62,662 bases of DNA from an uncultured Elusimicrobia bacterium (GCA_964374095.1 CAYJXJ010000004.1:1-62662); one strand, 5' to 3'. Numbered from the stretch's first letter, positions 11,111 to 54,000 are shown. Program-made: numbers and translations. Notes: a model not told the origin generated them from the letters alone.

Positions 11111-11146
11111 AGGCCTTAGATTCTATTAAATTTCACACCGGCGAGT

Positions 11147-28749: not shown

Positions 28750-30480
28750 CTAGGCGAGCAGTCCGAGAACCCCGTCCACGGTCCTGGCGACATTGCATCC
28801 GTCAAGCCGCCCGGCGTAGGCCTCCAGGAGCCGGGAATGGTCCACACGCTCGGGTATGCGATCGGGCAGAAGTTCCCGCAGGGCGGCGGCCAGGGACTCG
28901 GTCGTCTGGTGGCAGGGCAGGCCCGCGCTCCCATCGAATGGAGCTGTCGCATCGCTGGCCTGAAGGTTGACCAGAACAACCGGCAGGCCCATGGCCATGG
29001 CCTCGATCATGGACGTGGATAGTCCGCCGATCACCAGCGAGCTTTCCCGCAGCACTTCCGCCAAGAGGCGCCTCTCCTCGAGGACGCAGCGCGCGTCGAG
29101 CCGCTGCCCCAGGATCTCCCGGTAGAGCGCCCCGGGTTCGCCGGGATGGGTCTTGACCACGATCCGGACCCTCTCATGGCGCCTGACGAGCTCCACGACG
29201 GGCAGGATATTCTCTCGGACCGGCGCGCAATAGCCGACGACTACGACCTGCGGGACGACCGGCCGGCGGCGCAGGGCTCCGCTATAGCGGTCCAGCAGCG
29301 GAAACCCTGTCACATGAATGCGCTCCCGCGCGACTCCCAGGGAAAGATAGGCCCCAACCGCGACCGTACCGCCGATGAAGAGGTGATCGGCCTGCGTATC
29401 CACGAGCCGCGGGCGGCAGTGGGTCGGTAGGCCGTGCTGGACCAGGGCGGAGGGGATGCCTCGGCGGCGGGCCTCGTAGAGGAGCATCCGCTCCGGGGGG
29501 TTTCCATCGTACGGGACTACCACGAGCTCGGGAGCCCAGGAATCAAGCGCGCGTTGGATCTTGGCGAGCTGGGAGGCCATGAAAGCGAATTCCTCCATCA
29601 CGACCTCGTCGAGAAGGGCGCGCATGGCCTCCCAGGCGGGCAGACCCCCTGGCTCGAAGCGGCGCGCGTAGTCCGCGCTCGAGGAGAGCTCCCTCCACCT
29701 GCGCCCGATCGCCTCCAGCGCATCCACATCCGCGGCACGGAGCGGATCCTCAAAGGACGGATCGGTCAGGAAAGACCAGCGAGTCCATCCTCGCATCGAA
29801 GGAAGCCGCCGGGAGGGCCAGTCGAAGAAGGCCGGCCGGACGCCCTGGCGGCGGCCCAGTTCCTCCAACAGCCCTTCGAGCGTGTAGTAGTAGGAGGCCA
29901 GGACTCGCCGCCCGGACCGCGGCCGCAAGAACCCCAGTCCCCAGTTGAGCAGGCGCCGCTTGAGCGCGTGCGCGCTGAGGGGCCAGGACGAATAGCGGGT
30001 CGCGATCCGAACCTTGTCGCCGACCGCCGGCGCGCCGCGCCATTCCAGGGGGATGGCGCGGCCTCCGCAGAGCCTCTCGATGAGGTTGCGGCGATCCTTC
30101 GACACCTCTCGCTCGGCGATCACCCGGGCCGGCTTCTCCCGCTCCAAGAGCCTGTTGAACTCCCAGGCGAACTTGTAAACCGGTCCGAAAAACGCGCCGT
30201 AGACGAGGCCCTCCAGGCATTTGCCGAGGGAAATCCCGCGAAAGACGGTAAAGTCGCTCCCCGTGACGTCCCGGAACCATGCCTCGGCAAGGTCCTCGCC
30301 CCAGTTCCTCACCGGAGCATCGGGACCAAGGGTCCAGAGGTTAGGGTCGAGAAGAGCGGCCGGAGCGCCGCGGCGCAGGTAGGCTTCGCGGGTCCACTCG
30401 TCCAAGCAGACGACCAGCGCGCCGGGTGGGACCGGCCCGGCGGGCTGGGGGGAGGCTGCGATGTAGAGATCGGCGCTCAA
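28750..30480 (-). CDS. hypothetical 576-aa protein with a GT-B-like C-terminal half
   Basis: VQHGLPTH and GGLSTSMIEAMAMGLPVVLVNL patterns. TTG start at 30480 with TATAAT (30495-30490) 9 nt upstream. Confidence 0.6.
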   Translation of the reverse strand: MSADLYIAASPQPAGPVPPGALVVCLDEWTREAYLRRGAPAALLDPNLWTLGPDAPVRNWGEDLAEAWFRDVTGSDFTVFRGISLGKCLEGLVYGAFFGPVYKFAWEFNRLLEREKPARVIAEREVSKDRRNLIERLCGGRAIPLEWRGAPAVGDKVRIATRYSSWPLSAHALKRRLLNWGLGFLRPRSGRRVLASYYYTLEGLLEELGRRQGVRPAFFDWPSRRLPSMRGWTRWSFLTDPSFEDPLRAADVDALEAIGRRWRELSSSADYARRFEPGGLPAWEAMRALLDEVVMEEFAFMASQLAKIQRALDSWAPELVVVPYDGNPPERMLLYEARRRGIPSALVQHGLPTHCRPRLVDTQADHLFIGGTVAVGAYLSLGVARERIHVTGFPLLDRYSGALRRRPVVPQVVVVGYCAPVRENILPVVELVRRHERVRIVVKTHPGEPGALYREILGQRLDARCVLEERRLLAEVLRESSLVIGGLSTSMIEAMAMGLPVVLVNLQASDATAPFDGSAGLPCHQTTESLAAALRELLPDRIPERVDHSRLLEAYAGRLDGCNVARTVDGVLGLLA

Positions 30481-30511: not shown

Positions 30512-30540
30512 TTGACCCCTCTCCGACGGAAAAGCTATTC
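30512..30540 (+). promoter_or_regulatory. promoter copy attached to the truncated ligase fragment (TTGACC-17/18-(C)TATTCT)
   Basis: Aligns with the promoter at 32905-32933 (TTGACC, then ..CGACGGAAA..). Confidence 0.3.
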
Positions 30541-30547
30541 TGCGCGG

Positions 30548-30700
30548 ATGTGCCCGTTGGACCTTCTCAAGATCGCCGAGCAGAACCAGGACCGGCCCTT
30601 CCTCATCGCCCCGGACCGCCCGGTGACCTTGACCTACGCCGAATTCCACGGGGCGGCCCTGGGTCTGGCTGCCCGCCTCCAGGAAGAGGGGCCGCGCGTA
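30548..30700 (+). pseudogene. 5' fragment (~50 codons) of an AMP-dependent ligase paralogue
   Basis: MCPLDLLKIAEQNQDRPFLIAPDRPVTLTYAEFHGAALGLAARLQEEG aligns with residues 1-50 of the intact ligase at 32960. Similarity stops near 30690. Confidence 0.6.
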
Positions 30701-30713
30701 ACGCGCCGCCATT

Positions 30714-30884
30714 TCAAGACCCGCGGCCATAAAGGCCTGCGTCGGCGTAGTGGCGATAGAGCTAGTCGCCCTTGGTCTTGAAGTAGCGCTCGATGCCTTC
30801 CTTCTGGACCTGGATCGAGTGGCCTTCCTCGGCCCGCACCTCGGTCGAGACGCGCTTATACGCCACCCATATCATCGCGCTCAT
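30714..30884 (-). pseudogene. serine recombinase (resolvase/invertase-type) N-terminal remnant with an in-frame stop
   Basis: Hand translation gives MSAMIWVAYKRVSTEVRAEEGHSIQVQKEGIERYFKTKGD*LYRHYADAGLYGRGS*. It has the Y.RVST catalytic-serine motif and a Y.D.G..G block, and is truncated after ~55 codons. Confidence 0.6.
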
Positions 30885-30986
30885 GTCACCCCCACAGGCA
30901 ACTCAGTAATAGCTTGATACAACTTGCTACAGCCATGAATTAAGCCTCTGCCGTCGATCTTGTTACAAAGCTTGTTAGCCCATCTA

Positions 30987-32708
30987 TCAAGCAGCTCGCT
31001 TTCTAATCCGGTAAGTCTGCTTTGGACTGTGCTTGTTCTTCTCGGTTCCTTCCAGAACCCCCATTTTAAGAAGCTCCCGCACGGTGACCCTGGCATATGG
31101 CGTGGACAGCTTGCAGCCCTCGACAATCTGCTTGATGCTGACCGTGCCCTCCTTCTGAACGAAACCAAAAACCATCCGGTGCCTCGCCTTCCAAGCCGCC
31201 ACCTTCGGCGGGAGCGTGGCCTCTGTGAAGGCCGCAGCAAGCTCGTAGACGGCCCAGCGCCGCGAACCGAGCTGGTTGAGAAGGCCCAGCTCGCGCAACC
31301 CCGCAAGTTCCGCGGTCGCCATGCGCGAGTCGCACTGATTCAGCCGACTATAGTCCAGGTTCCGGATCGTGTGGTGTTTTCTCACCAGAGCCAGGGCCAG
31401 CCTCTGGCCGTCGTTGAGAGGGAAACCCGCAAGCTGATTGAGCCAGGTTACGGTCCCTTCATCGAGAAGAGACTCGTTGGAGAACGTGACGCGGAAGTAG
31501 GTCCTGCCGTCCTCGAACTCGGGGGGAGGCAAGTGCGCTTTGGCGAGTTGGGCGCTGACCGTGCGTATTCCCGATCCGCGATTTTCAGCGAGCCCTATCT
31601 CTTCAAGCATCCGCATCAAGTAGACGTTACGGGACGCCTGAACGCCCGCCTCGCCCAATGTCTCCTCCGTCACGGGACCGAAAAGCCCGCCGGGGCTTTG
31701 GACCACCAATCCGTCGGAGAACATCTTGACCTGCACCTGGCTTCCCAACGCGCCCGGGCCGTAGTCCCTATGGCCGACGGCGTTGACCAGTACCTCTCTG
31801 ACGGCCAGTTCGGGATACTCCGCGATCTCTTCCGACATGAGGCCGGTCTTGAGCGTCCTCCGTTGCATGTTCCGGCGAATAACATCCAACGCCCCCTCCA
31901 GCATGTCCGGCATGGTGCCCTCGATTTTCTGATTCTCGATGATTTGCGAGGCGTCGCGGGACCCTTCCTTAGCAGTACCCGCGTATCTCACCACAGTGAT
32001 GCAAAGATTAGGAAACTCCCCCTGGGGATACTTGCCAAACATCAGCCAGCCGGCCATGCTGGGCACAACCGCCGGCTCCGACCCTCTCCGGCTGGAAATC
32101 TTGTAAGTCTGCGAGAGGACCTCCTCCGATTGGCTCAAATGCTTCGCGTGGGGACGCCGCTCCCGTAAAGTGGCGAAGAACTTCTTGATTCGCTCTTGAT
32201 CCACGGCGTCCCACTCGACGCGCGCGGGGGGCCTGATATCTTCCTCCGGCTGCCCCCTAGCCGCAATGTAGCTCTGCACCTCGTAGTCGGTCATGACGCG
32301 GTCGCTGTCGCCGACCCGAATGAAAGCGCCCGCTGGCAAGCCCTTGGGCCGGTAAAAGCAGGGCTTATGGTGACGCGGGCACTCGGGAATGGAAACGACC
32401 AGCACCCGCTTTCCTCTTTCCACCGTGAACGTGTCGAAGGCTGGCCGGATCGGCGGCTCCATCTCCGCGCAGGCGTTTCCAATGTCCCTTTGGAGAGCGT
32501 CGAGCTGCTTCAAGCCGGTAGGCTGGAAAAGGTCGGGTGACAGGCCAAGGATCAAGGTCCCGCCGCCGGAGCGATTCGCGAGGGCGGACAATGACTGCCA
32601 CAACCGGGTCGGGGTTCCGCCGGCGGCGTCCTTGACCTCGATATCATCCAGCTCAGAGCCCCTTTCTCTGAGACTCTTGAGCAGTTCATCAAAATCTACC
32701 TTGAGCAT
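30987..32708 (-). CDS. AlbA_2 (Schlafen-like) + HATPase_c_4 (GHKL-like) + tandem wHTH protein
   Basis: DIEVKDAAGG...LSALANRSGGGTLILGL (AlbA_2 signature). REVLVNAVGHRDY...SPGGL...ENRGSGI (RecG-C/HATPase_c_4 signature). Start taken as ATG 32708, preceded by GGAGG 4 nt upstream. Confidence 0.85.
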   Translation of the reverse strand: MLKVDFDELLKSLRERGSELDDIEVKDAAGGTPTRLWQSLSALANRSGGGTLILGLSPDLFQPTGLKQLDALQRDIGNACAEMEPPIRPAFDTFTVERGKRVLVVSIPECPRHHKPCFYRPKGLPAGAFIRVGDSDRVMTDYEVQSYIAARGQPEEDIRPPARVEWDAVDQERIKKFFATLRERRPHAKHLSQSEEVLSQTYKISSRRGSEPAVVPSMAGWLMFGKYPQGEFPNLCITVVRYAGTAKEGSRDASQIIENQKIEGTMPDMLEGALDVIRRNMQRRTLKTGLMSEEIAEYPELAVREVLVNAVGHRDYGPGALGSQVQVKMFSDGLVVQSPGGLFGPVTEETLGEAGVQASRNVYLMRMLEEIGLAENRGSGIRTVSAQLAKAHLPPPEFEDGRTYFRVTFSNESLLDEGTVTWLNQLAGFPLNDGQRLALALVRKHHTIRNLDYSRLNQCDSRMATAELAGLRELGLLNQLGSRRWAVYELAAAFTEATLPPKVAAWKARHRMVFGFVQKEGTVSIKQIVEGCKLSTPYARVTVRELLKMGVLEGTEKNKHSPKQTYRIRKRAA

Positions 32709-32733
32709 TGGCCCTCCGCTACTTGATACATAC

Positions 32734-32762
32734 ATGATAATATATTATTAAGTTATTATCAA
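32734..32762 (-). promoter_or_regulatory. sigma70 promoter of the AlbA_2 gene (TTGATA-17-TATCAT)
   Basis: Read on the minus strand: -35 at 32762-32757, -10 at 32739-32734. Very AT-rich context. The -10 covers the first in-frame ATG (32735), which favours ATG 32708 as the start. Confidence 0.5.
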
Positions 32763-32904: not shown

Positions 32905-32933
32905 TTGACCCTTATCGACGGAAAGGTTAGACT
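32905..32933 (+). promoter_or_regulatory. candidate promoter of the acyl-loading operon (TTGACC-17-TAGACT)
   Basis: Hexamers at 32905-32910 and 32928-32933, 26 nt upstream of ATG 32960. A diverged copy lies at 30512. Confidence 0.4.
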
Positions 32934-32959: not shown

Positions 32960-34507
32960 ATGACTCCCCAAGACGTCATCCGCCGGGCCGAGGAGAGCCG
33001 GGACCATCCGTTTCTCATCGTGCCGGACCGCCGCCTCGCCCTGAGCTATGGGGAATTCCACGAGGCGGCGCTGGGCCTCGCCTGCCGGCTGCAAGAGGAA
33101 GGACTGGGCCGCGGAGACCGTCTCGTGGCCCTCCTGCCCAACTCCCCGGAATACGCGATCCTCTTCTTCGCCGCCCTCTACATGGGCGCGACCGTCGCCA
33201 CCGCCAACCCCGCGTTGAGCCCCGCGGTCATCTCGCGCGTGATCCGCGGCTCCCGGGGAAAGCTCCTCGTCTACGCCGAGGAAACGAAGCGCTTCCTGCT
33301 GGGCGCCAACAAGCCCGCCGACCCGATCCCGGCCTGGCTCCTGCCGCGCCTCAACGAACCCCTCTTCAATATCCCCTGGCGCAACCCCCCGTACGCGCCC
33401 TTGGAAGGGGTCTCCGGGCAGGATCTCTGGACCATCGTCTTCACCTCCGGAACCACGGCTTTCCCCAAGGCCGTGGCCCACACCATCGCCAACCTTTTGG
33501 GCAATGCCACGGCTTTCAACCGGGAAATGGGGATCGGCCGCGACAACCGCTTTCTCCACCTGCTGCCCATGGCCACCAGCGCCGGATTCTTCAACGTCCT
33601 GATCTCGCCCTTTCTCGCGGGCGCCAGCGTGGTCCTCACCCCGGGATTCGGGCCCCGCACCGCGCTGGAGTTCTGGCGCCTGCCCAGCGAGAACGGGGTC
33701 GACACCCTCTGGCTGACGCCCTCCATCGCCGGGGCCTTGCTGAAGGTGGACCGCGACGCCGCGGGCAAGGCCTGGTGCCGCCGAAGCATCAGGAGAATAT
33801 TCATCGGGACGGCTCCCCTCGCCCCCAAGGTCAAGCGCGACTTCGAAGCGGATTATGGAGTCCCCCTGTGGGAAAGCTACGGCCTCTCCGAGACCCTGTT
33901 GGTCTCAGGCAACGGCCCGACGACCGGCGCCGTCGAGGGCGCGGTCGGACGCGTCCTCCCCGGAATTTCGGCGGCGATTCGAGACGACCAAGGCCGTGAC
34001 GTCGCGGCCGGGACTGAAGGCGAGATCTTCATCAAGACCCCGCATATGATGGCCGGCTACCTCGATGACGCGACCGGACAGGCGGCGCGTCCCGATGACG
34101 AATGGTTCCCATCCGGCGACCTCGGCACCCTCGCGGCGGACGGCCTCCTGCGCATCACGGGCCGCAAGAAAGACCTCATCATACGGGGCAGCCTCAACAT
34201 CAGCCCCGCGGCGCTCGAGAACGTCCTTCTCCAGCACGAAGCCGTGGCCCAAGCCGCGGTCGTCGGCGTGCCCGACGCGGTGGCCGGCGAGGAGGTCGTG
34301 GCCGTCCTCAAACTCAAGGCCGGCAGGGTCTGGATCCAGGAGCGCGCCGGGCTCGAGGCTTACTGCAGGAACAGCTTCCCCGCCCCCAACCGCCCGACCC
34401 GCCTCCTGGAGATCGACGATTTCCCCTCGGGCCCGACCGGGAAGGTCTTGAAGCGCGAAATCCGCGCCTGGGCCGTCAAGGCTCTGGCCGCCGAGGTTCA
34501 ACCATGA
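32960..34507 (+). CDS. AMP-dependent synthetase/ligase (adenylate-forming enzyme)
   Basis: FTSGTTAFPKAV (A3 core), YGLSET, GDLG..DG.L.I.GRKKDLI motifs. Confidence 0.9.
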   Translation: MTPQDVIRRAEESRDHPFLIVPDRRLALSYGEFHEAALGLACRLQEEGLGRGDRLVALLPNSPEYAILFFAALYMGATVATANPALSPAVISRVIRGSRGKLLVYAEETKRFLLGANKPADPIPAWLLPRLNEPLFNIPWRNPPYAPLEGVSGQDLWTIVFTSGTTAFPKAVAHTIANLLGNATAFNREMGIGRDNRFLHLLPMATSAGFFNVLISPFLAGASVVLTPGFGPRTALEFWRLPSENGVDTLWLTPSIAGALLKVDRDAAGKAWCRRSIRRIFIGTAPLAPKVKRDFEADYGVPLWESYGLSETLLVSGNGPTTGAVEGAVGRVLPGISAAIRDDQGRDVAAGTEGEIFIKTPHMMAGYLDDATGQAARPDDEWFPSGDLGTLAADGLLRITGRKKDLIIRGSLNISPAALENVLLQHEAVAQAAVVGVPDAVAGEEVVAVLKLKAGRVWIQERAGLEAYCRNSFPAPNRPTRLLEIDDFPSGPTGKVLKREIRAWAVKALAAEVQP

Positions 34508-35166
34508 CCAAGCTCTGGGACCTTTCATTTCCGATCCACGAGGGAATGACGACCTTTCCCAGCCATTGGCACCCTCTGGTCGAGGTGACCCAACTCGGCC
34601 GCCATGGCATCGAGGACCGCGAGAGCCGCAAGTTGGTCCTGGGCACGCACACCGGAACGCACGTGGACGCGCCGCTGCACTTCGTGAAAGGAGGAAAGAC
34701 GATAGACCGGCTGCCCCTGGACTTGATGGTGGGGACGGCGGATGTCGTCGATCTTCCCGCCAAGCCCAAAGGGCGCGTGGACCTATCGCAGTTGAAGACC
34801 GCCCTCGGCGGCCGCGCCGTCCCGGAGCGGCTGCTGCTGCGCTGGGGCTGGTCGCGCCATTGGGGCCACATCCGCTACTACACCGAGGCGCCTTACCTCT
34901 CCGTCGAGTCCTGCCAATGGCTGGCGGAGCAAGGCGTCAAACTCCTCGGAATGGACACGCCGTCGGTGGACTGCCACGACCACGGCTGGCGCACGGCCAA
35001 CGACTGCCCCAACCATAAGGCCCTTTTGGGCGCCGGCGTCTTTCTCGTGGAGTACCTGAACAACTTGGACAAACTCCGCAAGCGCCGGGTGGACTTCATG
35101 GTCATGCCCCTCAACGTCCTCGGCGGCGATGGCGCGCCCGCCCGGGCCCTGGCCCGGGATGCCTAG
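34504..35166 (+). CDS. cyclase-family protein (kynurenine formamidase-like metallohydrolase fold)
   Basis: LGTHTGTHVDAPLHF motif. ATG 34504 overlaps the ligase stop (ATGA). The ORF-track start 34102 is a run-on. Confidence 0.85.
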   Translation: MTKLWDLSFPIHEGMTTFPSHWHPLVEVTQLGRHGIEDRESRKLVLGTHTGTHVDAPLHFVKGGKTIDRLPLDLMVGTADVVDLPAKPKGRVDLSQLKTALGGRAVPERLLLRWGWSRHWGHIRYYTEAPYLSVESCQWLAEQGVKLLGMDTPSVDCHDHGWRTANDCPNHKALLGAGVFLVEYLNNLDKLRKRRVDFMVMPLNVLGGDGAPARALARDA

Positions 35167-35432
35167 TGGACCCGGGCGTCATCCGCCGAACGATCCTGTC
35201 CTGGTTCCAGGCCAAGGGAAACATTCCCGGCGCCACCGACGCCGAGACGCTGGCGGCGAACTATTTCGACGCCGGCCTCCTCGACTCGCTGGGGGTCGTG
35301 GCCCTCATCTCGGAGTTGGAAAGCCGCTTCGCGATCCGCTTCGAGCAGGACCATTTCCGGCAGAGCCGCTTCTCCACGATCGGCGGACTCTGCGAGATCG
35401 TCGGCGAGCTCGCGGGCCGCAAGGGGCCATGA
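35166..35432 (+). CDS. acyl/peptidyl carrier protein
   Basis: 88 aa, LLDSLGVVALISELE phosphopantetheine-attachment motif. GTG overlaps the upstream stop by 1 nt. Confidence 0.8.
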   Translation: MDPGVIRRTILSWFQAKGNIPGATDAETLAANYFDAGLLDSLGVVALISELESRFAIRFEQDHFRQSRFSTIGGLCEIVGELAGRKGP

Positions 35433-35439
35433 CCGTCCG

Positions 35440-35592
35440 ATGAACCTCCAAGACCCGGCCCGCGGGCTGGCCCGTCTGCGGGAGCCCTACGCCCGCATCG
35501 CCTCCGAATTCCTGGGGCCGCTGGATGGAACCGCCGTCGAGCGCACGATCGACGAACTCCTGCGCGTGGCGCGGCGCCCCGAGAAGGCCTGA
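35440..35592 (+). CDS. 50-aa hypothetical protein
   Basis: Not in the ORF track (<60 aa). ATG 35440, stop overlapping the next start (TGATG). Roughly 90% G/C at third positions by hand count. Sequence MNLQDPARGLARLREPYARIASEFLGPLDGTAVERTIDELLRVARRPEKA. Confidence 0.4.
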   Translation: MNLQDPARGLARLREPYARIASEFLGPLDGTAVERTIDELLRVARRPEKA

Positions 35593-37874
35593 TGCCATCC
35601 GGCCCGCGCCAGGTTCACTACGCCCACTCGGCGCCGGGTTCCGGGGGGGACTGGGCCGAGACCCCCTTTCAGGTCGCTCTGGGCGAGACGCGCGTTCCCA
35701 ACTGCCCGGATGCCATGCGCCACGCGCTGTTCACCATGCGGCTGGCCGTCGAGTTGGGGATCAAGCCCCCCGCCGCCCCCGCGCCGCACCCCCGGCCCTA
35801 CTCCGACGACGCCGACACCCTGCTCTTCGGCGCCCCCCTCATCAGCCTGGTGTGCGGACAGCGCGTCAAGCTCCTGCGCGGCTGGAAGCAGTTCGGCGGC
35901 TGCGTGAAGGGCTTCAACGCGCTGGGGCTTCTGGCGGAGCACGCGTGGGTGGAACTCGAAGGGCTCAAGAGGCTACCCCCCGATGCCCAACGACGGGGAC
36001 GGATTGATTTTCTCCGGTCTCGACGCAGGGACGGAAAGTCGGTTTTTACGGAACAGGAGCTTGCGGCATACCGCGAAACCGATCTAGCTTCGGTGGATTT
36101 GCTGGCGGTTTCGCTGTGGCGTTCGTTCGCTCGCCGAATGATCGTATGCTCCACCTCCTCGAACCTGGGCATTTCCCTCCACCAAGCCTTGCGCCTGATG
36201 CAGTCCAAGAGGCTTGAGGCCGGCGGCAAGACCTTCGGCATGCTCAATGCCGACGAAGGCGAGCTTCTGATATGGGTCCCCGATGAGGCCGCCGACTTCA
36301 TGAACCCGCAGAAAACCGCCGCCCTGCGGGCCCTGGAGGCCGAGAGGCCCAAGCTCACGACCCTGCGCACCTACATCAACCGCAGGCAGCGCGACCCGGG
36401 AGCGCTCAAGGACGCCCTCAACGCCGGCGGCTACTTCTTCCCCACCAACCCCCAGTCTCCCGAGGAGATGCAGAACCTGCTGGCCATGTCCCTGGCCGGC
36501 GCGGCCCGGGAGCGCAGCGCCGCTTTCGAGGAAGTCCTGCTCGATCCCAACGTCCGGCAAACGCTCGCCGGCCTGGGAGCGGCCATCGTCGGCGACAGGG
36601 TGGAGGTGCGCTGCGGCGTCGAGGGCGGGCTCTACGGCCTGGCCGTGCCCTACCTCATCATGCTCGAGGAGTCCCTGCTCTCCGGAGACACGACGGCCGT
36701 CTCCACCTGGAGCCAGACCTCCATCGGAGCGGCCCTGGCCGCCGGCGTGCTCTGCGATTCCCGCCTGAGCGGCGGCCCCGAAGCGGCGACGGATATTCAA
36801 GCCGAACTCTCACGGTTCTTCCCCCGCCTCATGTCGTTTCTCAAGCGCTCCCGCTTAGGCCGCGATCTCCGCACCCGCATCCACGGGGTCTTTGACACCG
36901 CCAACCTCCAATCCCTGGCCCAGCTCTTCGGCGTGGCCGCGACGCGTCACCTCTCGGGCCGCGGGACGGCCTTCGTGGGGCTGGGGTCGAGCTCCTACGC
37001 CAACGGCAACCTGTGCTTCGACCTCCTGCGCGCGAGCGCCGAAAGCAGCGGGGCCTTCCCGGGACCCGGCGGCCTTCATCCCGCGACCCACGCCGTCAAT
37101 CCCCTGGCCCAAGCCCTGATCTACGCCGAGGACTTGGCGCGGGCGGCGTCGGCCCCCCAGTTTTCCGGCCTGGCCGAATCCGAGCGGATCGCCTTCGTCC
37201 GACGCCACGCCGTCAAGCCCGAGCCCGCGGGGGCCGCGGCCGCGGCCGGGTACCTCCTGGCCCGTCTCGACGGGGGGACGCTGTCCTTCTTCGAGATCGC
37301 CTACGCCCTGCGTTTGGCCGGATTTACCCGGGAGACGTTTCTCGAATTCGGAGACTACGGCCGCGACGAGCTTGCCGAAAGCCGATTCGTCCAGGAGGCC
37401 ATCGAGGAGGGCGAATACATGGAGTCCTTGGCCCGCAGCCTGATGCGGTCGCTCGCCCTTGACCTCGCCGCCCTGGAAGGACGGGCCCGGGAGGAACGCG
37501 CCCGCAGCCGCCTGGCCTACCGCTGGAACTCCCTGCACGACGACGCCTTCGAACGACGCGCCCCCGTGATCAATATCTGCCTGACCGGAGACAATTGCGG
37601 CCAGCCTTCGGCGGACCTGGTCGGCAGGCTCCTCGTCGGCCTGGAGGCCAACCGGGACCGGCTGCGGCGGGCCCTGGAAGGCGACGCCGCCGCCCGTTCC
37701 CGTCAGCCGGGATTCGACGCCGTGTGGGCGGCCAAGACCGCAGCGGGTATTCTCTGCGGCGCGCTCTCGCGGGCCCACCGGGGCATCCGGCGCCTCATGC
37801 GCGGCGCCATCGAGCCGGCCATTAATCGTATGATGGTCGAACGCAACTCGCATCCGCCCCGGGAGAAATCATGA
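35592..37874 (+). CDS. 760-aa hypothetical protein, no recognisable domain
   Basis: Long frame with G/C-rich third positions, translationally coupled to the upstream genes. No TM segments or catalytic motifs recognised by eye. Confidence 0.75.
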   Translation: MPSGPRQVHYAHSAPGSGGDWAETPFQVALGETRVPNCPDAMRHALFTMRLAVELGIKPPAAPAPHPRPYSDDADTLLFGAPLISLVCGQRVKLLRGWKQFGGCVKGFNALGLLAEHAWVELEGLKRLPPDAQRRGRIDFLRSRRRDGKSVFTEQELAAYRETDLASVDLLAVSLWRSFARRMIVCSTSSNLGISLHQALRLMQSKRLEAGGKTFGMLNADEGELLIWVPDEAADFMNPQKTAALRALEAERPKLTTLRTYINRRQRDPGALKDALNAGGYFFPTNPQSPEEMQNLLAMSLAGAARERSAAFEEVLLDPNVRQTLAGLGAAIVGDRVEVRCGVEGGLYGLAVPYLIMLEESLLSGDTTAVSTWSQTSIGAALAAGVLCDSRLSGGPEAATDIQAELSRFFPRLMSFLKRSRLGRDLRTRIHGVFDTANLQSLAQLFGVAATRHLSGRGTAFVGLGSSSYANGNLCFDLLRASAESSGAFPGPGGLHPATHAVNPLAQALIYAEDLARAASAPQFSGLAESERIAFVRRHAVKPEPAGAAAAAGYLLARLDGGTLSFFEIAYALRLAGFTRETFLEFGDYGRDELAESRFVQEAIEEGEYMESLARSLMRSLALDLAALEGRAREERARSRLAYRWNSLHDDAFERRAPVINICLTGDNCGQPSADLVGRLLVGLEANRDRLRRALEGDAAARSRQPGFDAVWAAKTAAGILCGALSRAHRGIRRLMRGAIEPAINRMMVERNSHPPREKS

Positions 37875-37876
37875 GG

Positions 37877-39730
37877 TTACGATCTCGGAACCGGCGCCGT
37901 AGCCAGCGACCGCAGCCACAGCTCCAGGTTCAGGAGCTGCCAGAAAAACATCATGTGGTTGTCTTCAACCGCCCCCGAGGACACGATGCGCTCGTGTTCC
38001 GCGGCCAGGCGCCGCACCTCGTCCACGTCGTAGATGCCCCGCTCGCGAAACTCCCGCGAACCGACGAGGTCCAAGACGAGCTCCCGCCCCTTGCCCGCGA
38101 ACCACAGATGCGCCGGGGCGTTCCAGCCGGTCTTCTTGACCCGCGTCCGGGTCTCCTCCGGAAGCAGGCCCCGCATGGCCAGGCGCAGGAGGTGTTTGGT
38201 GACGCCGTCCCGGATCTTGAGGCCCGCCGGCGCCCGGAACATGAATTCCGCGAGGCGGTGGTCGAGGAAGGGGTTCACGTGCGAGAGGCCCAGGGCCTCC
38301 CCGTGCCGGTCCTGGGCGCGGAGGCAGCAGGGGAGGGTTTCCCGAAAGAGATCGTGGCAGGCTCTGTTCTTGAGGTAGCTCGAGAATGGCCGGTCCATGA
38401 CGGGCTTGAAACTCTCCAGGACGAAGTACTCGGGATGCAGGGCGGCCGCGTAGCGGCGGACCCGCCGCCAGTCCGGCAGGCAGCGGCCCGGAGAGGCCAG
38501 GTCCACCAGATCTTTAAGTCCCGCATCGCGGACCGCCGCCGACTTGCGAAAGACCGGGTGGTCGTGGCGGCGCGCCCAAGCCTCGGTCTCCGGCCCGAGC
38601 GAGGCGTCCCGCCGCGCGGCGAGGTCGGCGAAGAAGTAGAAGAAGTGCTCATACTCCCCGGCGTTGAGCTCGTCACCCCCGAGGCCGCCGAAGAGCCGTG
38701 AAAATCCGTCGCGGCGCACGTCCTCGCAGACGCGGTAGTGCGACAGCCACGTCGCCGTCGCGACGGGCTCATCATGGGCCGCGATCATGCGGCCGACCAG
38801 GGCCGCGACATCCGGCGCGCCGATGCGCACCGGGTGCCACGTCTCGACCGTCGACGCGAGCATGCTCTTGATCTCGGGCGATTCGTCGTAAGTCGCGTCC
38901 TCGTAGACGGAGGAGTAACAGTCCTGGCGGCGCCCCGAGACCTTGACCGCGCACGCCAGGACCGACGAGGAGTCCATGCCTCCCGAGAGAGTGAATGCCT
39001 GCCCCGCATCCGCCGCCAGGCGGATGCGGACCGAATCGAGCAAGAGCTCGCGGTACTGCCGCGCCAAGCCCTCCTCCGTTTCCGCGGCCTCCGGACCCTC
39101 TTCCAGGTTCCAATACCGTCCGGTCTCCACCCGTCCCTTTTTCCACCGCAGCCAGGCCCCGCCCGGCAGCTGGCCGATGTCCTCATAAGGCGAAGCCTCG
39201 GGATCGTTGTCGAAAGTCCGGTAATGGGACGCGGCGAAGAGCGCGACGAACTCCCGCCGCGGACGAGGGGTCAGCCCGGGCGCAACGAACAATCCCCTCG
39301 GCCGCGACGCAAAGCACAGGCCGCCTCGCCTTTCCGTCCAGTAGAGAGGACGCACCCCAAACCGATCCCTTCCCAGCCACAGTTCTCCGGAAGAGCCGTC
39401 GTATAAGGCGATCGCGAAATCGCCGTTGAGGGCCGCGAGCGTTCTCTCAAATCCCCGTTCGCGGTACAGGCGGGCGACCCACTCGGCGTCACCCCCGGCG
39501 CCGCCGAAATCCGTCCGATTGTAGATCGAACCGTCCATGACGACCCGGATCTCGCCCGAGCTTGCCCAGCCGGAGCCCCCGCTCCCCAGCTCGCCGACCG
39601 TCGCGCCCGCGGCCTCCAAGACCTGCGTCCGGCGCGCATCGGGCCCCGCGCTTCCGGCGCGCTGGGCTTCCAGCATGGACCCCGCGAGCGCGGCGTCCCG
39701 CTCCCCGGCGAGACCAGCGATCCTAGCCAT
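37877..39730 (-). CDS. asparagine synthetase B-family ATP-dependent amide synthetase lacking the N-terminal Cys nucleophile
   Basis: Starts MARIAG (Ala where AsnB has Cys2) with a shortened glutaminase-like region. PP-loop SGGMDSS is intact. Confidence 0.85.
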   Translation of the reverse strand: MARIAGLAGERDAALAGSMLEAQRAGSAGPDARRTQVLEAAGATVGELGSGGSGWASSGEIRVVMDGSIYNRTDFGGAGGDAEWVARLYRERGFERTLAALNGDFAIALYDGSSGELWLGRDRFGVRPLYWTERRGGLCFASRPRGLFVAPGLTPRPRREFVALFAASHYRTFDNDPEASPYEDIGQLPGGAWLRWKKGRVETGRYWNLEEGPEAAETEEGLARQYRELLLDSVRIRLAADAGQAFTLSGGMDSSSVLACAVKVSGRRQDCYSSVYEDATYDESPEIKSMLASTVETWHPVRIGAPDVAALVGRMIAAHDEPVATATWLSHYRVCEDVRRDGFSRLFGGLGGDELNAGEYEHFFYFFADLAARRDASLGPETEAWARRHDHPVFRKSAAVRDAGLKDLVDLASPGRCLPDWRRVRRYAAALHPEYFVLESFKPVMDRPFSSYLKNRACHDLFRETLPCCLRAQDRHGEALGLSHVNPFLDHRLAEFMFRAPAGLKIRDGVTKHLLRLAMRGLLPEETRTRVKKTGWNAPAHLWFAGKGRELVLDLVGSREFRERGIYDVDEVRRLAAEHERIVSSGAVEDNHMMFFWQLLNLELWLRSLATAPVPRS

Positions 39731-39736
39731 CCATCC

Positions 39737-39856
39737 TCACGATGACAGCCGAAACGGTTGGGGAGAAGAGACCTTCAGGCGCCCGAAATCGGCATGGAGC
39801 GGATTGAGCAGATAGTTGCGCTCCGTTTCAATGACCACCGAGGGGAACGCGGGCAT
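39737..39856 (-). CDS. 39-aa ORF wedged between the methyltransferase and the AsnB-like gene
   Basis: Hand translation gives MPAFPSVVIETERNYLLNPLHADFGRLKVSSPQPFRLSS. Its ATG directly follows the upstream TAG and its stop is 6 nt before the AsnB-like ATG. About 74% G/C at third positions by hand count. Confidence 0.3.
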   Translation of the reverse strand: MPAFPSVVIETERNYLLNPLHADFGRLKVSSPQPFRLSS

Positions 39857-40612
39857 CTACTTCACCGCGTGGACGATCCACATGCTTTGCATGTACTCGT
39901 CATAGCCGCGTTTTCGCGCCTCGGCCTTGGGTATCCAGTAGGTGGCCCGGCAGGGATCCACCACCGAAAAGCCCCGGAAGTGCTCCCGATACTCCTCTTT
40001 GGAGAAGAAGTGGCTCAGGCCGATGTCGGTGAGATGGAGCTTCGACGTGCCGTCCTGGAGCATCAGGGTTCCCGGGTCGGACGGGAGTTGTCCGGAGCGC
40101 CGCTTCCGATAGACCGTGTGCCCGCGGTCGAGCATGTAGCCCACGAATAGGCCTCCGGGCTTGAGCAGGCGGCGGACCTCGGCGAACGCGGCGGCTCGAT
40201 CCTCCCTGTTGAGGTGCTGGAAAACGCAGGACTCGATCACGCCGTCGAAGCTGCCGTCCTTGAAGGGCACGCGCGTCACGCTGCCCGGCACCAGGCTCCC
40301 GACGCGCCCGGAGAGGCCCGCCGCCCGGAGGTTGCGCCGGGCCAGCCCCAGCGCCGCCGCGGCGATGTCGATGCCGCTGACCTGGATTCCCTTGCGCGCG
40401 AGCCAGACGAGGTTGGGCCCGGCGCCGCAGCCCATCTCCAAGTAAGCCATGCGGCGCAGCGCCGCGGGCTTGCGGCCGCGGATATGATAGGCCACGTGCC
40501 GGATCACCGCCTCGACGGCCGAGGTATTGTAGGCCGAGGCCGCGATCTGCTCCCGGAACGACCGGTCCCAAGTCTCCTGCATCCGGCGCTGTGAGGGGGC
40601 GGGTCTATTCAT
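39857..40612 (-). CDS. class I SAM-dependent methyltransferase
   Basis: YLEMGCGAGPNL motif I, FDGVIESCVFQHL. Confidence 0.8.
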   Translation of the reverse strand: MNRPAPSQRRMQETWDRSFREQIAASAYNTSAVEAVIRHVAYHIRGRKPAALRRMAYLEMGCGAGPNLVWLARKGIQVSGIDIAAAALGLARRNLRAAGLSGRVGSLVPGSVTRVPFKDGSFDGVIESCVFQHLNREDRAAAFAEVRRLLKPGGLFVGYMLDRGHTVYRKRRSGQLPSDPGTLMLQDGTSKLHLTDIGLSHFFSKEEYREHFRGFSVVDPCRATYWIPKAEARKRGYDEYMQSMWIVHAVK

Positions 40613-41784
40613 GGAGCCATGAAGCCTCTGAGGGTGAATTTCCCGCTGGGCTCCCTCAAGCGCTCGAACTCCAGAACCCGCAGACCCGCGCGGGCGGCGA
40701 GTATGCCGTAGGACGCCGCCGAAAAGACGTGTTGGTGATCGATGAAGAACTCCTCGCGTCCCGGCCCCCCGGCCGCGGCCCCCTCGCCGTCCGGGAGCTC
40801 CACGTAGACGAAGCCCCCCCTCTTCAGATGTCCCGCGGCCTTGCCCAGCATGGGGACGGGGTTTCGGACGTGCTCGAGGACCTTGTTGAAGCTGATCGCG
40901 TCGAACCGGCCGAGATTTTTAACGCGCATAAAGTCGCCGCGCACGGCCTTGACCCCGACGGCCTCCCGCGCGTGCCGCGCCTGGCGGGGGTCGGGATCGA
41001 GCGCCGTGCCCTTCCAGCCCGCGGCCTTCATGCGGGCGAGAAAGACGCATAAGCCCGAGCCGACATCTAAGACGCTCCGCCCAGGACGCGCGCCAAGATG
41101 TCGGCGACTAAATCCGTCGACGTAGCGCACCCTGCCGACGTTATCCGACTTTCCGGCGGGCAAGGCCATGATCCGTTTGTAGCCCTTCAGGAGTCCGTCC
41201 CTTCCGTAGGTCGAGGTTACGTACTCCTCCCCATACATGTCCTCCATTTTCATGCCGTGGACCGAGATGAAATGGCCGCAGGCGTCGCATCTCAAGACTT
41301 GCCGCTTGTAATCGCCGGCCGCGGATTTAAAACGAATCTCTCCGGCCGGCGGGGAATCATACGTGAAGATCGTCTTCAAGGATTCCCCGCCACAAATGCA
41401 TCGCCGCCCTTGCCGCGGGCTGCCCATCCGTTCCAATCCTGCTAGGGCCTCGGCGTCATCCAGCCACATCAGCACGCGTTGTCCGGTCTTTCCAACGTAG
41501 TCGTCAAAAGCGTCCTCCCTCCCTTTGAGAACCGCCATTAGGAAATAGGCGCCGTTGAGGCCGCTTTTGACGAGGCAGGGACGCAAGCCCTTGCGCCCCA
41601 GCCTCGAGTTGAGCGACGGGCTTGCGTAGTAGCCCCAGGCCTTGCGGCAGAAATCGTACTCCGAGCCCTCGGCCGCGAAGGTGACCTGTTCGTCCGGCGA
41701 AAGCTCCACCCGGGCGCAGTCCTTGAGGACGATCCCCGCGAAGACTTTGAACTCTCGGGGCGGCCGCACCGGGACGAACCTCAT
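40609..41784 (-). CDS. methyltransferase with an N-terminal unknown domain and a Cys4 zinc ribbon
   Basis: CICGG...CDACGH ribbon, VLDVGSGLCVF motif I, FDAISFNKVLEHV. ATG 41784 overlaps the upstream stop (ATGA). Confidence 0.75.
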   Translation of the reverse strand: MRFVPVRPPREFKVFAGIVLKDCARVELSPDEQVTFAAEGSEYDFCRKAWGYYASPSLNSRLGRKGLRPCLVKSGLNGAYFLMAVLKGREDAFDDYVGKTGQRVLMWLDDAEALAGLERMGSPRQGRRCICGGESLKTIFTYDSPPAGEIRFKSAAGDYKRQVLRCDACGHFISVHGMKMEDMYGEEYVTSTYGRDGLLKGYKRIMALPAGKSDNVGRVRYVDGFSRRHLGARPGRSVLDVGSGLCVFLARMKAAGWKGTALDPDPRQARHAREAVGVKAVRGDFMRVKNLGRFDAISFNKVLEHVRNPVPMLGKAAGHLKRGGFVYVELPDGEGAAAGGPGREEFFIDHQHVFSAASYGILAARAGLRVLEFERLREPSGKFTLRGFMAP

Positions 41785-42959: not shown

Positions 42960-42987
42960 CGGTACGCGCGTACAGTCGGAGAATGGG

Positions 42988-44817: not shown

Positions 44818-44820
44818 CGG

Positions 44821-45501
44821 CTAGCGCCCTCCCGCGGCCAGCGCGTGCTTATGGAGCACGATGGCGGTCCGGACCGCGCGGAAGCCGCAGGACTCGTAGA
44901 GCCTAAGTGAGGGAATGTTGGCGGCCTGGGTGCCCACCAGGAGTTCGTCGCACGATCCCCGGTAGGCGTTGACGAAGAACCGGACCAGGTCCCGGCCCAG
45001 GCCGCGGCCCTGATGGGCCTTGCCGACCCCGATCAAGTCGATGACCGCCTGGCGCCGCCCGCCCTCCGAAGCCCTCAGCACCGCCAGAAACCCGGCGGGC
45101 CGCCGCCCCCTCAAGACCGCGTGGAGCGCCGCGCCCCGGCGGCCCTCCACGTAGGAGCGGATCCACTCGCGCTTGATGCGGTGCGCCAAGGCGCCGGGAA
45201 CCTCGGGGTCGAGGTGGAACCGCGAAAACTTAAAGCACGAGCCCGCGATGTCAAGGACCGCCGCCGCCGTGCGCGCGGTCACGGCCTCCACCGGGGAGGT
45301 TGGCTCCGGAAGGGCGGGGGCGGCGGCGGCCCTGGAGAATGTCACGCTCACGTCCACGACGCGAAACCCCGCCGCTTCGAATCGTCCCACGGCCGCGGCG
45401 TGCTCGGGCGGGACCTTGGCGTAGGCGAAGGAGGGCGCCGGCAGCCCGCGCAGGCTGGCCGCGGGCGCGCCGGGCTCCACACACCGCACGGGCCGCCCCA
45501 T
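44821..45501 (-). CDS. GNAT N-acetyltransferase, WecD (dTDP-4-amino-4,6-dideoxyhexose acetyltransferase)-like
   Basis: Two-domain layout. FSRFHLDP..., acetyl-CoA motif HQGRGLGRDLV, VGTQAANIPSLRLYESCGF. ATG 45501 chosen (227 aa); the ORF-track start 45588 overlaps the upstream gene by 52 nt. Confidence 0.7.
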   Translation of the reverse strand: MGRPVRCVEPGAPAASLRGLPAPSFAYAKVPPEHAAAVGRFEAAGFRVVDVSVTFSRAAAAPALPEPTSPVEAVTARTAAAVLDIAGSCFKFSRFHLDPEVPGALAHRIKREWIRSYVEGRRGAALHAVLRGRRPAGFLAVLRASEGGRRQAVIDLIGVGKAHQGRGLGRDLVRFFVNAYRGSCDELLVGTQAANIPSLRLYESCGFRAVRTAIVLHKHALAAGGR

Positions 45502-45536
45502 GATCCCTTCCAGCCAAGGGTCCTCGCGGACCCCTT

Positions 45537-53961: not shown

Positions 53962-54000
53962 GGGATGCGGCGGAGATTATAGTATCGTGACCGACCCCGC

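Follow-up and report, generated by a model that had tools for sequence, protein, structure and literature searches.

A carrier-protein ligase cassette with a predicted PLP-type enzyme in a sugar-biosynthesis locus of an uncultured Elusimicrobia bacterium

The gene block and its surroundings

The window analysed here, a stretch of 62,662 nucleotides from an uncultured Elusimicrobia bacterium (GCA_964374095.1 CAYJXJ010000004.1:1-62662), is a large sugar-biosynthesis locus. ORF calling revealed five plus-strand ORFs at 32960-37874 that form a tightly packed, co-directional block. The first (32960-34507) encodes an adenylate-forming (ANL) ligase of 515 aa (PF00501, 1.6e-68; PF13193, 1.6e-13), and the second (34504-35166; 220 aa from the ATG at 34504) a cyclase-family metal hydrolase of the kynurenine-formamidase type (PF04199, 8.5e-32). 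These are followed by the gene for a stand-alone carrier protein (ACP; 35166-35432; PP-binding, 4e-6) of 88 aa with a DSLG phosphopantetheine site, by orf50, a frame of 50 codons (35440-35592), and by orf760 (35592-37874), whose 760-aa product belongs to an unannotated family and is predicted from its homologues, AF2 and Foldseek to be a fold-type-II PLP enzyme. In each of the five ORFs, G+C by codon position follows a coding-type pattern (GC3 0.85-0.90). They meet at ATGA (34504), TAGTG (35164-35168) and TGATG (35590-35594), with a 7-nt gap between the ACP gene and orf50. An initial, sequence-only reading of this DNA had given the coordinates, the overlapping junctions and the motifs TSGTTAFPK, DSLG and HTGTHVDAPLH, all of which were confirmed. 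It had also placed a sigma-70-like promoter 5' of the ligase gene; the candidate (TTGACC-17-TAGACT, plus strand, 32905-32933) was recovered by a consensus scan, but it is weak, with 9/12 consensus matches, and three such sites were observed in 7.8 kb versus 0.9 expected in shuffles. A similar TTGACC site lies at 30512, ahead of a ligase relic described below.

The same reading proposed a five-gene unit. Although the packing and shared direction hold, orf50 is evidently what remains of the 3' end of a glycosyltransferase gene that has been deleted, an open frame yet not a fifth gene. Its product found no family match in Pfam or NCBIfam. At locus L003, a gt576-like frame runs for 791 codons from stop to stop between an AAC(3)-like gene and the homologue of orf760, and over 34 aa the orf50 product shares 59% identity (E 2e-9) with the C-terminal tail of that frame; it can likewise be aligned to the tails of gt576 in the window and of unk575 at L054. 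Relatives keep glycosyltransferase, methyltransferase and AAC(3)-like acyltransferase genes between the ACP and 760-aa genes. Compared to L003 and L004, the window lacks ~3.6 kb that comprises the methyltransferase and AAC(3)-like genes and the greater part of a glycosyltransferase gene; another ~2.1 kb, with a hexapeptide transferase gene, is missing from the interval that separates orf760 from asnB.

Further disturbance is visible upstream. A truncated 5' relic of an earlier ligase copy (30512-30781, plus strand) has 62.5% amino acid identity to residues 1-48 of the intact ligase, and its bases 30572-30690 match the L003 ligase gene at the 5' end with 79% identity, more closely than the intact ligase does (70.5%). 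Between this relic and the cassette lies a minus-strand SLFN/AlbA_2 gene that also carries HATPase_c_4 (30987-32735; PF04326, 1.7e-13; PF13749, 3.5e-24), in a region with a G+C of 0.62-0.63 versus ~0.68 in the flanks. A possible resolvase N-terminal fragment was seen at 30762-30884 (E 0.032). Together with the ~3.6 kb gap that left orf50 and the absent ~2.1 kb, the broken ligase copy and the inserted gene would suit a cassette that is, in this genome, a decaying and non-functional remnant of a fuller system. We consider this quite improbable, since the four core ORFs are intact, with their catalytic motifs and coding-type GC3, and the identical minimal four-gene set is found in four other Elusimicrobia loci (L026/L053, L032, L042 and L043).

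Beyond the relics, gt576 (28750-30480, minus strand) encodes a 576-aa GT-B-like surface-carbohydrate transferase with weak matches to Glyco_trans_1_4, the BFO_1060 family and TIGR04396. Identity is 53% to the gene that immediately follows the orf760 homologue in L054 and 29% to the one that immediately precedes the homologue in L003; judged by these alignments, a GT-B-like transferase recurrently accompanies the cassette in this clade. On the other side, a convergent minus-strand block (37877-45588; Pfam, NCBIfam) holds genes for an AsnB-like amidotransferase, two methyltransferases, an N-acetyl sugar amidotransferase (41781-42959; 63-69% identical to proteins carrying that name), a second AsnB-like protein and a GNAT. 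Its order is conserved in L003 up to the second AsnB-like gene, the GNAT gene having been found in the window only.

No MBOAT (DltB), Hexapep, LpxL-type, condensation, ketosynthase, thioesterase or DltD gene emerged when ~60 long ORFs from across the window were scanned with Pfam, and neither NeuB, a CMP-transferase nor a dedicated acyltransferase is present in the window. The absences reported by the sequence-only reading hold for the ORFs scanned; the GNAT gene at 44821-45588, the only acyltransferase-type gene of the window in these scans, had gone unmentioned. That reading further described the module as one with no recognisable acyl-acceptor enzyme. None indeed lies beside the cassette, but relatives retain a hexapeptide acyltransferase and an AAC(3)-like N-acyltransferase within it, and the absence is thus the result of deletion in this genome and not a property of the system.

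A conserved four-gene core across genomes

The 760-aa protein, previously set down as an unplaceable orphan, proved to have more than 200 homologues (203 in at least 12 phyla, 42-66% identical). All are unnamed and lack Pfam domains. Fusions to an AMP-ligase account for 17 of the 120 best homologues; the fused proteins are 1197-1308 aa long with AMP-binding domains, the orf760-like part forming the N-terminal portion. We define this ORF-760 family by a set of motifs, SC(V/I)KGFN, CSTSSNMG, GGYFFPTNPQS, VGLGSSSY, KPEPAGAA and LTGDN, together with a neighbouring or fused carboxylate-activating enzyme. Its proteins or domains span ~620-815 aa. The window protein, the reference sequence of family alignment A1, has every motif and a ligase in the same block.

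A synteny survey covered 44 genome loci from at least 12 phyla; lack of synteny had been named in the sequence-only reading as a refuting outcome, and this was not what the survey found. The ligase gene adjoins or is fused to the orf760 homologue in 25/44 loci, while the cyclase and the ACP each occur in 22/44. In 14 further loci there is an ATP-grasp gene, and ten carry Amidohydro_2. Homologues of orf760 occur in two interchangeable cassettes: the first combines AMP-ligase, ACP and cyclase, the second an ATP-grasp ligase and a hydrolase of the Amidohydro_2 type. Cassettes of both types frequently include an aminotransferase, RidA or a glutamate-dehydrogenase-like enzyme, with a GdhA-like gene directly upstream in 21 of the 44 loci and RidA in five. 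The survey shows that ligase, cyclase-family hydrolase, ACP and 760-aa genes, as assigned by homology, are the conserved core, syntenic in many genomes of several phyla, and that the 760-aa protein is the constant element, with a putative carboxylate-activating enzyme always alongside or fused. No characterised pathway corresponds to either the cyclase or the 760-aa protein. The cyclase gene usually adjoins that of the ACP, hinting at carrier chemistry; Amidohydro_2, its apparent counterpart, serves carrier-free cassettes.

Homologous cassettes often lie near amino-sugar or nonulosonic-acid genes, with NeuB, CMP-transferase or DegT adjoining, and those of relatives contain hexapeptide and AAC(3)-like N-acyltransferases. 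A role in glycan tailoring, as suggested from the window alone, fits this context. The glycan link is frequent, not universal. At L053 the four-gene core sits among transposases, a Fic gene and an FGE-sulfatase, without sugar genes, and in non-glycan contexts members of a distant subfamily have DAO and CN_hydrolase genes as neighbours or occur as fusions with glutamate synthase domains. Both observations would be expected if the cassette were a module of metabolism or small-molecule synthesis, serving for example nitrogen handling or the supply of an unusual amino or oxo acid for a secondary metabolite, and were often merely parked in variable surface-polysaccharide islands. This is unlikely in our view, as many loci adjoin sugar-type (DegT) aminotransferases, annotated neighbourhoods hold NeuB, CMP-transferase, glycosyltransferases and sugar N-acyltransferases, and the GT-B transferase is a constant neighbour in this clade. 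In one distant relative, P0165, the single instance of this GOGAT-type fusion, the domain replaces the ammonia-producing GATase domain of glutamate synthase.

Predicted products of the core genes

The ligase belongs to the ANL superfamily (AMP-binding, 231.7 bits; AMP-binding_C, 51.8 bits; Pfam) and carries TSGTTAFPK as well as the C-terminal lysine motif GKVLKRE. Its top 25 NCBIfam matches are acyl-CoA ligases, the best being fatty-acid, acyl-CoA and malonyl-CoA ligases, and it reached no NCBIfam equivalog cut-off; the closest PDB sequences are oxalyl-CoA synthetase and FadD13 (~1e-45). Assignment as DltA or as an NRPS adenylation domain was rejected, the protein resembling acyl-, oxalyl- and fatty-acid-CoA ligases instead. 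The hydrolase is a member of the Cyclase family PF04199 (110.8 bits versus a cut-off of 23.1) with the metal motif HTGTHVDAPLH (HxGTHxDxPxH). Its closest PDB entries are 1r61, KynB and isatin hydrolase; as a KynB orthologue it was rejected, with 97.4 bits to the arylformamidase equivalog TIGR03035 against a cut-off of 223. For the ACP, the best NCBIfam matches are DltC and AmcB, tied at 31.9 bits and both under cut-off (DltC: NF003464, 31.9 versus 68 bits; TIGR01688, 24.2 versus 52.35), and its PDB neighbours are D-alanyl carrier proteins (7e-8). On sequence comparison, DltC is the closest relative of the ACP, yet the ACP is not a DltC member.

The 760-aa protein found no match in Pfam, NCBIfam or, by profile search, among PDB sequences (0 matches). 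PALP (PF00291) gave no match to it even at E<=10, short of the gathering score; 4/51 family members matched PALP (best E 0.02), hhalign probabilities for PLP-family membership were below 1%, and no sequence method reached significance. Structure prediction, by contrast, points to a fold-type-II PLP enzyme of deaminase or racemase type. The AF2 model (pLDDT 89.1, pTM 0.89) retrieved fold-II PLP enzymes from the PDB as all of its 50 top Foldseek matches (best E 1.6e-3). An independent AF2 model of a 24%-identical relative (pLDDT 83.2) gave 18 matches at E<=1e-3, all of them fold-II PLP enzymes: threonine dehydratase (1.7e-5), serine racemase, D-serine dehydratase and DAP ammonia-lyase. Over the two models, the matches are almost exclusively fold-type-II PLP enzymes, with threonine, serine and diaminopropionate deaminases ranking highest. 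Foldseek probability for these enzymes was ~1.0, and TM on target length was 0.55-0.63, modest because of large insertions in the family. In both predicted models the two-domain alpha/beta fold of the tryptophan-synthase-beta type is present.

For the features sought, namely a Schiff-base lysine, a Gly-rich phosphate-binding loop, a substrate (Asn) loop and a contact to the pyridine N, candidate residues could be proposed on this model: K106 as the PLP lysine, residues 186-193 as the substrate loop, 463-468 as the phosphate loop, the EPAG helix at 544-550 and TGDN at 665-668. K106, T188/S189/G193, GLG 463-465, E544/A546/G547 and T665/G666 are invariant across both subfamilies and N668 is nearly so. 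In weak hhalign matches the motifs are collinear with those of CysK and TdcB: residues 174-197 align with the substrate loop of CysK/TdcB and, in the expected order, 542-561 with the 'EGAGA' helix of TdcB. The family shares its predicted core fold by Foldseek with known fold-type-II PLP enzymes, and the layout of its candidate motifs may correspond to theirs: the invariant lysine is placed at a helix N-terminus after a strand-loop element, and the Ser/Thr-rich loop, Gly-rich loop, 'E-x-A-G-A' helix and '(S/T)-G-x-N' come after it in canonical order; RidA among the neighbours (5/44 loci) adds a likeness to enzymes of the threonine/serine-dehydratase type. Unlike those enzymes, family members are twice the size (~700-760 aa) with several large helical insertions, carry extra invariant motifs (e.g. 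GGYFFPTNPQS, HGVFDxANLQSL and HPATH), are recurrently fused to an ANL ligase and escape Pfam PALP, NCBIfam and PDB sequence searches.

DltA and DltC act in D-alanylation, and AlmE, AlmF and AlmG add glycine to lipid A, AlmG being an LpxL-type protein. With DltA/DltC and Alm our cassette shares a free-standing adenylating enzyme, a small carrier protein closest to DltC and a putative association with a cell-surface polymer. It differs in that the ligase is not DltA-like, MBOAT/DltB, DltD and an LpxL-type AlmG are lacking, and a PLP-type enzyme and a metal hydrolase are extra obligatory partners. Of the DltA/DltC or NRPS-loading logic first suggested, only the DltC-like character of the ACP, below cut-off, survives. 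Aminoacylation of a glycan in the Dlt/Alm manner, in which the ligase would load an amino acid on the carrier and the cyclase and/or the 760-aa protein would act as the transferase, could call on the kinship of the ACP with D-alanyl carrier proteins, on the usual adjacency of cyclase and ACP genes in ligase-type cassettes and on the lack of a classical transferase beside the cassette in the window. We nevertheless judge it improbable: the invariant residues of the 760-aa family are identical in ATP-grasp cassettes without any carrier protein, its models have a PLP deaminase-type fold rather than that of a transferase, the ligase groups with acyl- and oxalyl-CoA ligases and not DltA, and relatives have dedicated hexapeptide and AAC(3)-like transferases, DltB and DltD not having been found. 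For the first two of these reasons, the earlier suggestion that the 760-aa protein unloads the carrier is also unlikely.

Proposed role

Two other systems bear on the chemistry. During cispentacin biosynthesis, the ANL enzyme AmcH loads a 2-oxo acid, 2-oxoglutarate, directly on the stand-alone ACP AmcB (PMC10698177), a precedent for such loading by an ANL enzyme. AmcB is the joint-best NCBIfam match of the window ACP, and the GdhA-like neighbours in related cassettes point to oxo- or amino-dicarboxylate chemistry; however, the ACP scores 31.9 bits against the AmcB cut-off of 80, KS-like AmcF/G are lacking and the gene context is another. Aeromonas group II flagellin glycosylation islands hold an uncharacterised ACP and an AMP-dependent synthetase among pseudaminic-acid genes (PMC7874193), a likeness in gene content. 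Unlike the cassette, they carry 3-oxoacyl-ACP reductase, luxE and luxC, and a cyclase-family gene and a 760-aa family member are absent from them (PMC7874193).

We lean towards the view that the block represents a reduced version of a cassette, widespread and horizontally mobile, whose products make and activate an acyl unit derived from an amino acid; most genomes with this cassette have it in amino-sugar or nonulosonic-acid loci. In our reading, the 760-aa enzyme makes or edits the acid loaded by the ligase. With PLP at K106, this enzyme would carry out alpha,beta-elimination or replacement on an amino acid; the enamine or imine so released would give rise to a 2-oxo acid and ammonia. Where the cassette is fuller, interconversion of the oxo and amino forms would fall to a GdhA-like dehydrogenase, an aminotransferase or an amine oxidase, sometimes with RidA. 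The ANL ligase would then adenylate the resulting acid and load it on the DltC-like ACP, whereas in the alternative cassette an ATP-grasp ligase would activate the acid without a carrier. A hexapeptide or AAC(3)-like N-acyltransferase would move the acyl group to a sugar amine, and the metal hydrolase, cyclase or Amidohydro_2, may either free the acceptor amine by de-N-acylation or release or cyclise the acyl unit. As the methyltransferase, AAC(3)-like and glycosyltransferase genes have been deleted here and the hexapeptide transferase is absent, transfer in this genome would need another enzyme, which may be the GNAT encoded at 44821-45588, an enzyme encoded outside the window, or the cyclase.

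As a tentative and broader proposal, the 760-aa family may represent an unrecognised PLP branch, a giant deaminase or beta-replacement enzyme. Coupled or fused to a carboxylate-activating enzyme, it would equip nonulosonic or amino sugars with an N-acyl substituent derived from an amino acid, in at least 12 bacterial phyla and by two non-orthologous activation routes, ANL ligase with ACP or ATP-grasp ligase; a related domain may serve as an alternative ammonia donor to a glutamate-synthase-like enzyme.

A ligase-cyclase-carrier cassette in a sugar locus

The cassette lies in a window of 67% G+C whose genes, where compared, are identical to those on contig CAMTXP010000031.1 of the metagenome-assembled genome GCA_947085715.1. 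Its five plus-strand frames, encoding an AMP-ligase (32960-34507), a cyclase-type hydrolase (34504-35166), an acyl carrier protein (ACP; 35166-35432), a 50-residue product (orf50; 35440-35592) and a 760-residue protein (35592-37874), stand where a sequence-only reading had placed them. The ATGA, TAGTG and TGATG junctions are genuine overlaps, and 7 nt separate the ACP gene from orf50. All five frames carry the coding pattern of this genome (GC3 0.85-0.90, GC2 about 0.5), and analysis of G+C by codon position found no coding-type pattern in long antisense ORFs. The promoter-like site proposed upstream of the ligase exists, although in a consensus scan it rises only weakly above chance. Pfam confirmed the assignments of the ligase (AMP-binding and AMP-binding_C), the hydrolase (Cyclase, PF04199) and the ACP (PP-binding), while the 50- and 760-residue products matched no Pfam or NCBIfam model.

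Pfam scans of around 60 further ORFs revealed a large sugar locus surrounding the cassette, with DegT aminotransferases, epimerases, dehydratases, GFO/IDH/MocA oxidoreductases, glycosyltransferases, C- and other methyltransferases, two AsnB-like amidotransferases and three DUF6044 paralogues (50165-52204, 58412-60484 and 60501-62564). A sugar C-methyltransferase (Methyltransf_13/14; 2525-3796, plus strand), a 779-residue fused E1-dehydrogenase alpha/beta protein (14652-16991, plus) and a B12-binding radical-SAM enzyme (20363-22306, plus) suggest that branched-chain or C-alkylated sugars are made in the locus, and a SIS + CBS sugar-phosphate isomerase (10133-11110, minus) together with an HldE-like PfkB-kinase/cytidylyltransferase fusion (12874-14874, plus) points to a heptose or higher-sugar nucleotide pathway. 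Inserted among the DUF6044 paralogues is an island of lower G+C (0.59-0.61; 54000-58409), which encodes a 695-residue product without Pfam matches (54464-56551, minus) and an AbiEi/AbiEii type IV toxin-antitoxin pair (56668-57534 and 57384-58409, plus).

The same scans upheld the earlier statement that the window holds no MBOAT, condensation, ketosynthase or thioesterase gene. They found no hexapeptide or LpxL gene either, leaving a GNAT (44821-45588, minus) as the sole acyltransferase-type gene. Searching the window with tblastn yielded no NeuB, CMP-transferase, AAC(3)-like, hexapeptide or Acetyltransf_3 gene, and Rfam gave no riboswitch or other RNA family. The 392-residue product of 41781-42959 (minus) was considered as the missing acyltransferase and rejected; it has no Pfam match and is 63-69% identical to thousands of proteins named 'N-acetyl sugar amidotransferase', a type of enzyme that makes acetamidino sugars. 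Its gene is flanked by two AsnB-like amidotransferase and two methyltransferase genes.

A conserved family with exchangeable partners

The 760-residue protein had been regarded as an orphan, a label that no longer holds: 203 homologues came out of a search of 5.8 billion proteins, and the top 120 are 42-66% identical to it over 75-100% of its length. None carries a functional name or Pfam domain for the 760-like region. Where a taxon is given, it is Verrucomicrobiota, Acidobacteriota, Melainabacteria, Bacteroidota, Elusimicrobiota or Rhodospirillaceae. A 51-member alignment has a mean column identity of 49% and around 90 invariant positions. When 1.84 billion representatives clustered at 50% identity were searched exhaustively with a profile, just 104 matched at E<=1e-3, from which we conclude that the family is compact and strongly constrained, with a rarer distant subfamily. 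Profile searches against Pfam, NCBIfam and the PDB gave no match to the 760-residue protein, and literature searches aimed at the family or the cassette found no paper.

Domain fusions tie the family to its neighbours. Among the best 120 homologues, 17 (1197-1308 residues) also contain AMP-binding domains, with the 760-like part N-terminal and the ligase part C-terminal; this fusion is a Rosetta-stone link between the ligase and 760-residue genes, the two that frame the block in the window. One distant-subfamily relative, P0165, is a 1640-residue single ORF (8001-12923 of locus L056, on contig WBZO01001313.1 of the metagenome-assembled genome GCA_009612915.1) in which the 760-family domain precedes the Glu_syn_central, Glu_synthase (FMN) and GXGXG domains of the glutamate synthase large subunit, at the usual position of the N-terminal ammonia-generating glutamine-amidotransferase domain. 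This architecture is suggestive, but when we looked for a recurrence of the fusion, P0165 proved a singleton.

Scanning one genome per species turned up 44 loci, spread over at least 12 phyla; one lies in the cultured Brevifollis gellanilyticus NBRC 108608 (L008, 10001-12130, on NZ_BKAG01000010.1). Cassette types were defined by searching the six-frame ORFs of these loci with the window proteins and annotated neighbours. In type A, an ANL ligase is adjacent or fused to the 760-family gene (25 loci), with a cyclase in 22 and an ACP in 22. Its full order, seen in Verrucomicrobiota and slightly varied or partial in Myxococcota and Bradymonadia, runs: sugar aminotransferase, GdhA-like dehydrogenase, 760-family gene, ligase, VOC-like protein, hexapeptide acyltransferase, cyclase, ACP, a methyltransferase of about 385 residues and an AAC(3)-like N-acyltransferase. 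Acidobacteriota, Bdellovibrionota and Bacteroidales have looser combinations of these genes, and Elusimicrobia the minimal ligase-cyclase-ACP-760 form, in one case among transposases without sugar genes nearby. Type B (14 loci, in Bacteroidota, Nitrospirota, Melainabacteria, Gamma- and Alphaproteobacteria, Actinomycetota, Planctomycetota and others) lacks ANL ligase, ACP and cyclase and has instead an ATP-grasp ligase with an L-amino-acid-ligase C-domain and an Amidohydro_2 hydrolase, frequently accompanied by a class-I/II aminotransferase, RidA, a GH130-like protein and a small hexapeptide transferase. Several cassettes are flanked by NeuB, CMP-transferase and hydrolysing-epimerase genes. Two recurrent partners have weak family signals: a 274-residue VOC/glyoxalase-like protein of type A (L047, 5428-6252) and GH130-like proteins of about 300 residues in type B (L049, 10946-11851; L050, 10179-11111).

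Between the two types the 760-family enzyme stays constant, and its partners show non-orthologous displacement three times over: an ATP-grasp ligase takes the place of ANL ligase and ACP, Amidohydro_2 that of the cyclase, and an aminotransferase or amine oxidase that of the GdhA-like dehydrogenase.

Predicted fold of the 760-residue protein

An AlphaFold2 model of the 760-residue protein, built with the family alignment as input, reached a pLDDT of 89.1 and a pTM of 0.89. In a Foldseek search of the PDB, all 50 of the best matches were fold-type-II PLP enzymes, including threonine deaminase, diaminopropionate ammonia-lyase, threonine synthase, TrpB, serine racemase, CBS and O-phosphoserine sulfhydrylase (probability about 1.0, best E 1.6e-3, TM on target length 0.55-0.62). 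As an independent test we modelled P0163, a distant-subfamily member 24% identical to the window protein (pLDDT 83.2). Again, 18 of 18 matches at E<=1e-3 were fold type II, led by E. coli threonine dehydratase (1.7e-5) and followed by serine racemase, D-serine dehydratase and diaminopropionate ammonia-lyase.

By predicted structure, then, the family has the fold of these enzymes; sequence models do not place it among them. Pfam PALP matched 4 of 51 members, at E>=0.02, and Pfam scans of ten distant relatives as a bridge gave no PALP match. Using hhalign, we compared the family with CysK (identical to a PDB entry), E. coli TdcB (close to a Salmonella PDB entry) and human serine racemase; the local matches were insignificant, with probabilities <1%, though collinear. 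Residues 174-197 (IVCSTSSNLGISLH) fell on the substrate 'Asn loop' of CysK and TdcB, and residues 542-561 (KPEPAGAAAAAGYLL) on the 'EGAGALACAALL' helix of TdcB, two weak matches that are mutually collinear and lie on hallmark elements. A match of 498-515 to the Asn loop of serine racemase broke the motif order and was dropped.

Reading the secondary structure of the model against the family alignment gave a candidate PLP lysine, K106, which begins helix 106-127 and is preceded by strand 91-95 and a loop of 10 residues, a spacing that would resemble that of TdcB. GLGSSS (463-468), before helix 474-484, may be phosphate-loop-like, and LTGDN (664-668), after strand 659-663, may correspond to the SGGN element of dehydratases and racemases. 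K106 and residues of the GLGSSS and LTGDN elements are among the few invariant in an alignment of both subfamilies. Given this layout and invariance, PLP-dependent, deaminase-like chemistry is likely for the family.

Rearrangement in the window and a proposed route

The closest relative overall is a metagenome contig (L054, 66% identical); the closest loci of the genome scan are L003 and L004 (Elusimicrobiota, 62%), which carry ligase, cyclase, ACP, methyltransferase, AAC(3)-like gene, glycosyltransferase, 760-family gene and hexapeptide transferase, followed, as in the window, by a convergent run of asnB, two methyltransferases, N-acetyl-sugar amidotransferase and asnB. Aligned with L003, the window DNA matches to the end of the ACP gene and resumes inside the 760-residue gene, with about 3.6 kb of L003 missing between. 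Orf50 itself aligns with the C-terminal 34 or so residues of the L003 glycosyltransferase (59% identity, E 2e-9). Thus the supposed fifth gene, also entertained as a conserved micro-protein, is a relic of a glycosyltransferase tail and a deletion scar. The methyltransferase, N-acyltransferase and glycosyltransferase genes that the cassette once carried have been lost from the window. The hexapeptide gene is absent as well, with 2 nt separating the stop codons of the 760-residue gene and asnB.

Upstream of the cassette, a second ligase copy survives as a 5' fragment at 30512-30781 (plus), which has a TTGACC promoter-like site of its own. Over bases 30572-30690 this relic shows 79% identity to the L003 ligase, against 70.5% for the intact ligase, which suggests cassette replacement or rearrangement. 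Between relic and cassette is inserted a segment of lower G+C (0.62; 30762-32735) with a SLFN/AlbA_2 + HATPase_c_4 (RecG-C-like) gene on the minus strand and a 40-codon ORF, possibly a fragment, with a weak resolvase N-terminal match (E 0.032). Together, these features mark the region as rearranged. The cassette is nevertheless probably functional, since all four of its core genes are intact and other Elusimicrobia carry this minimal set too; candidates for its acyl transfer are the GNAT, an enzyme encoded outside the window and the cyclase.

Gene content, fusion, synteny, predicted fold, motif conservation and the deletion are demonstrated; the route that follows is our inference. The 760-residue enzyme would catalyse a PLP-dependent elimination or replacement yielding a 2-oxo acid or modified amino acid, which the ligase would activate; its nearest relatives act on small acids (oxalate, malonate) and fatty acids, and AmcH/AmcB provide an earlier example of a 2-oxo acid being loaded on an ACP (PMC10698177). 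The acyl group would then be N-transferred to a sugar amine, with the metal hydrolase preparing the acceptor or releasing the product. Because the same invariant residues occur in carrier-free cassettes, the most probable substrate of the 760-family enzyme is a free or a sugar-linked molecule rather than acyl-ACP. A reaction releasing an enamine or imine together with ammonia would be consistent with RidA and with the deaminating or aminating partners. The cassette would function like the Dlt and Alm carrier-protein systems and resembles uncharacterised ACP/synthetase genes of Aeromonas glycosylation islands (PMC7874193), but the tests of membership in these systems went against it.

Bacterial surface sugars bear many unusual N-acyl groups without known biosynthetic genes, and for one such route the cassette offers a concrete candidate of wide distribution, centred on a strongly conserved family without annotation in Pfam, NCBIfam or the PDB. 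As a rule of thumb for annotation, a 'hypothetical 750-aa protein' adjoining genes for an AMP-ligase or ATP-grasp enzyme and a metal hydrolase should be read as one module with them. The cassette clearly merits attention in enzyme discovery and in work on glycan biosynthesis, and, if the PLP assignment holds, fold type II would gain a new double-size architecture linked to carrier-protein and ATP-grasp chemistry.
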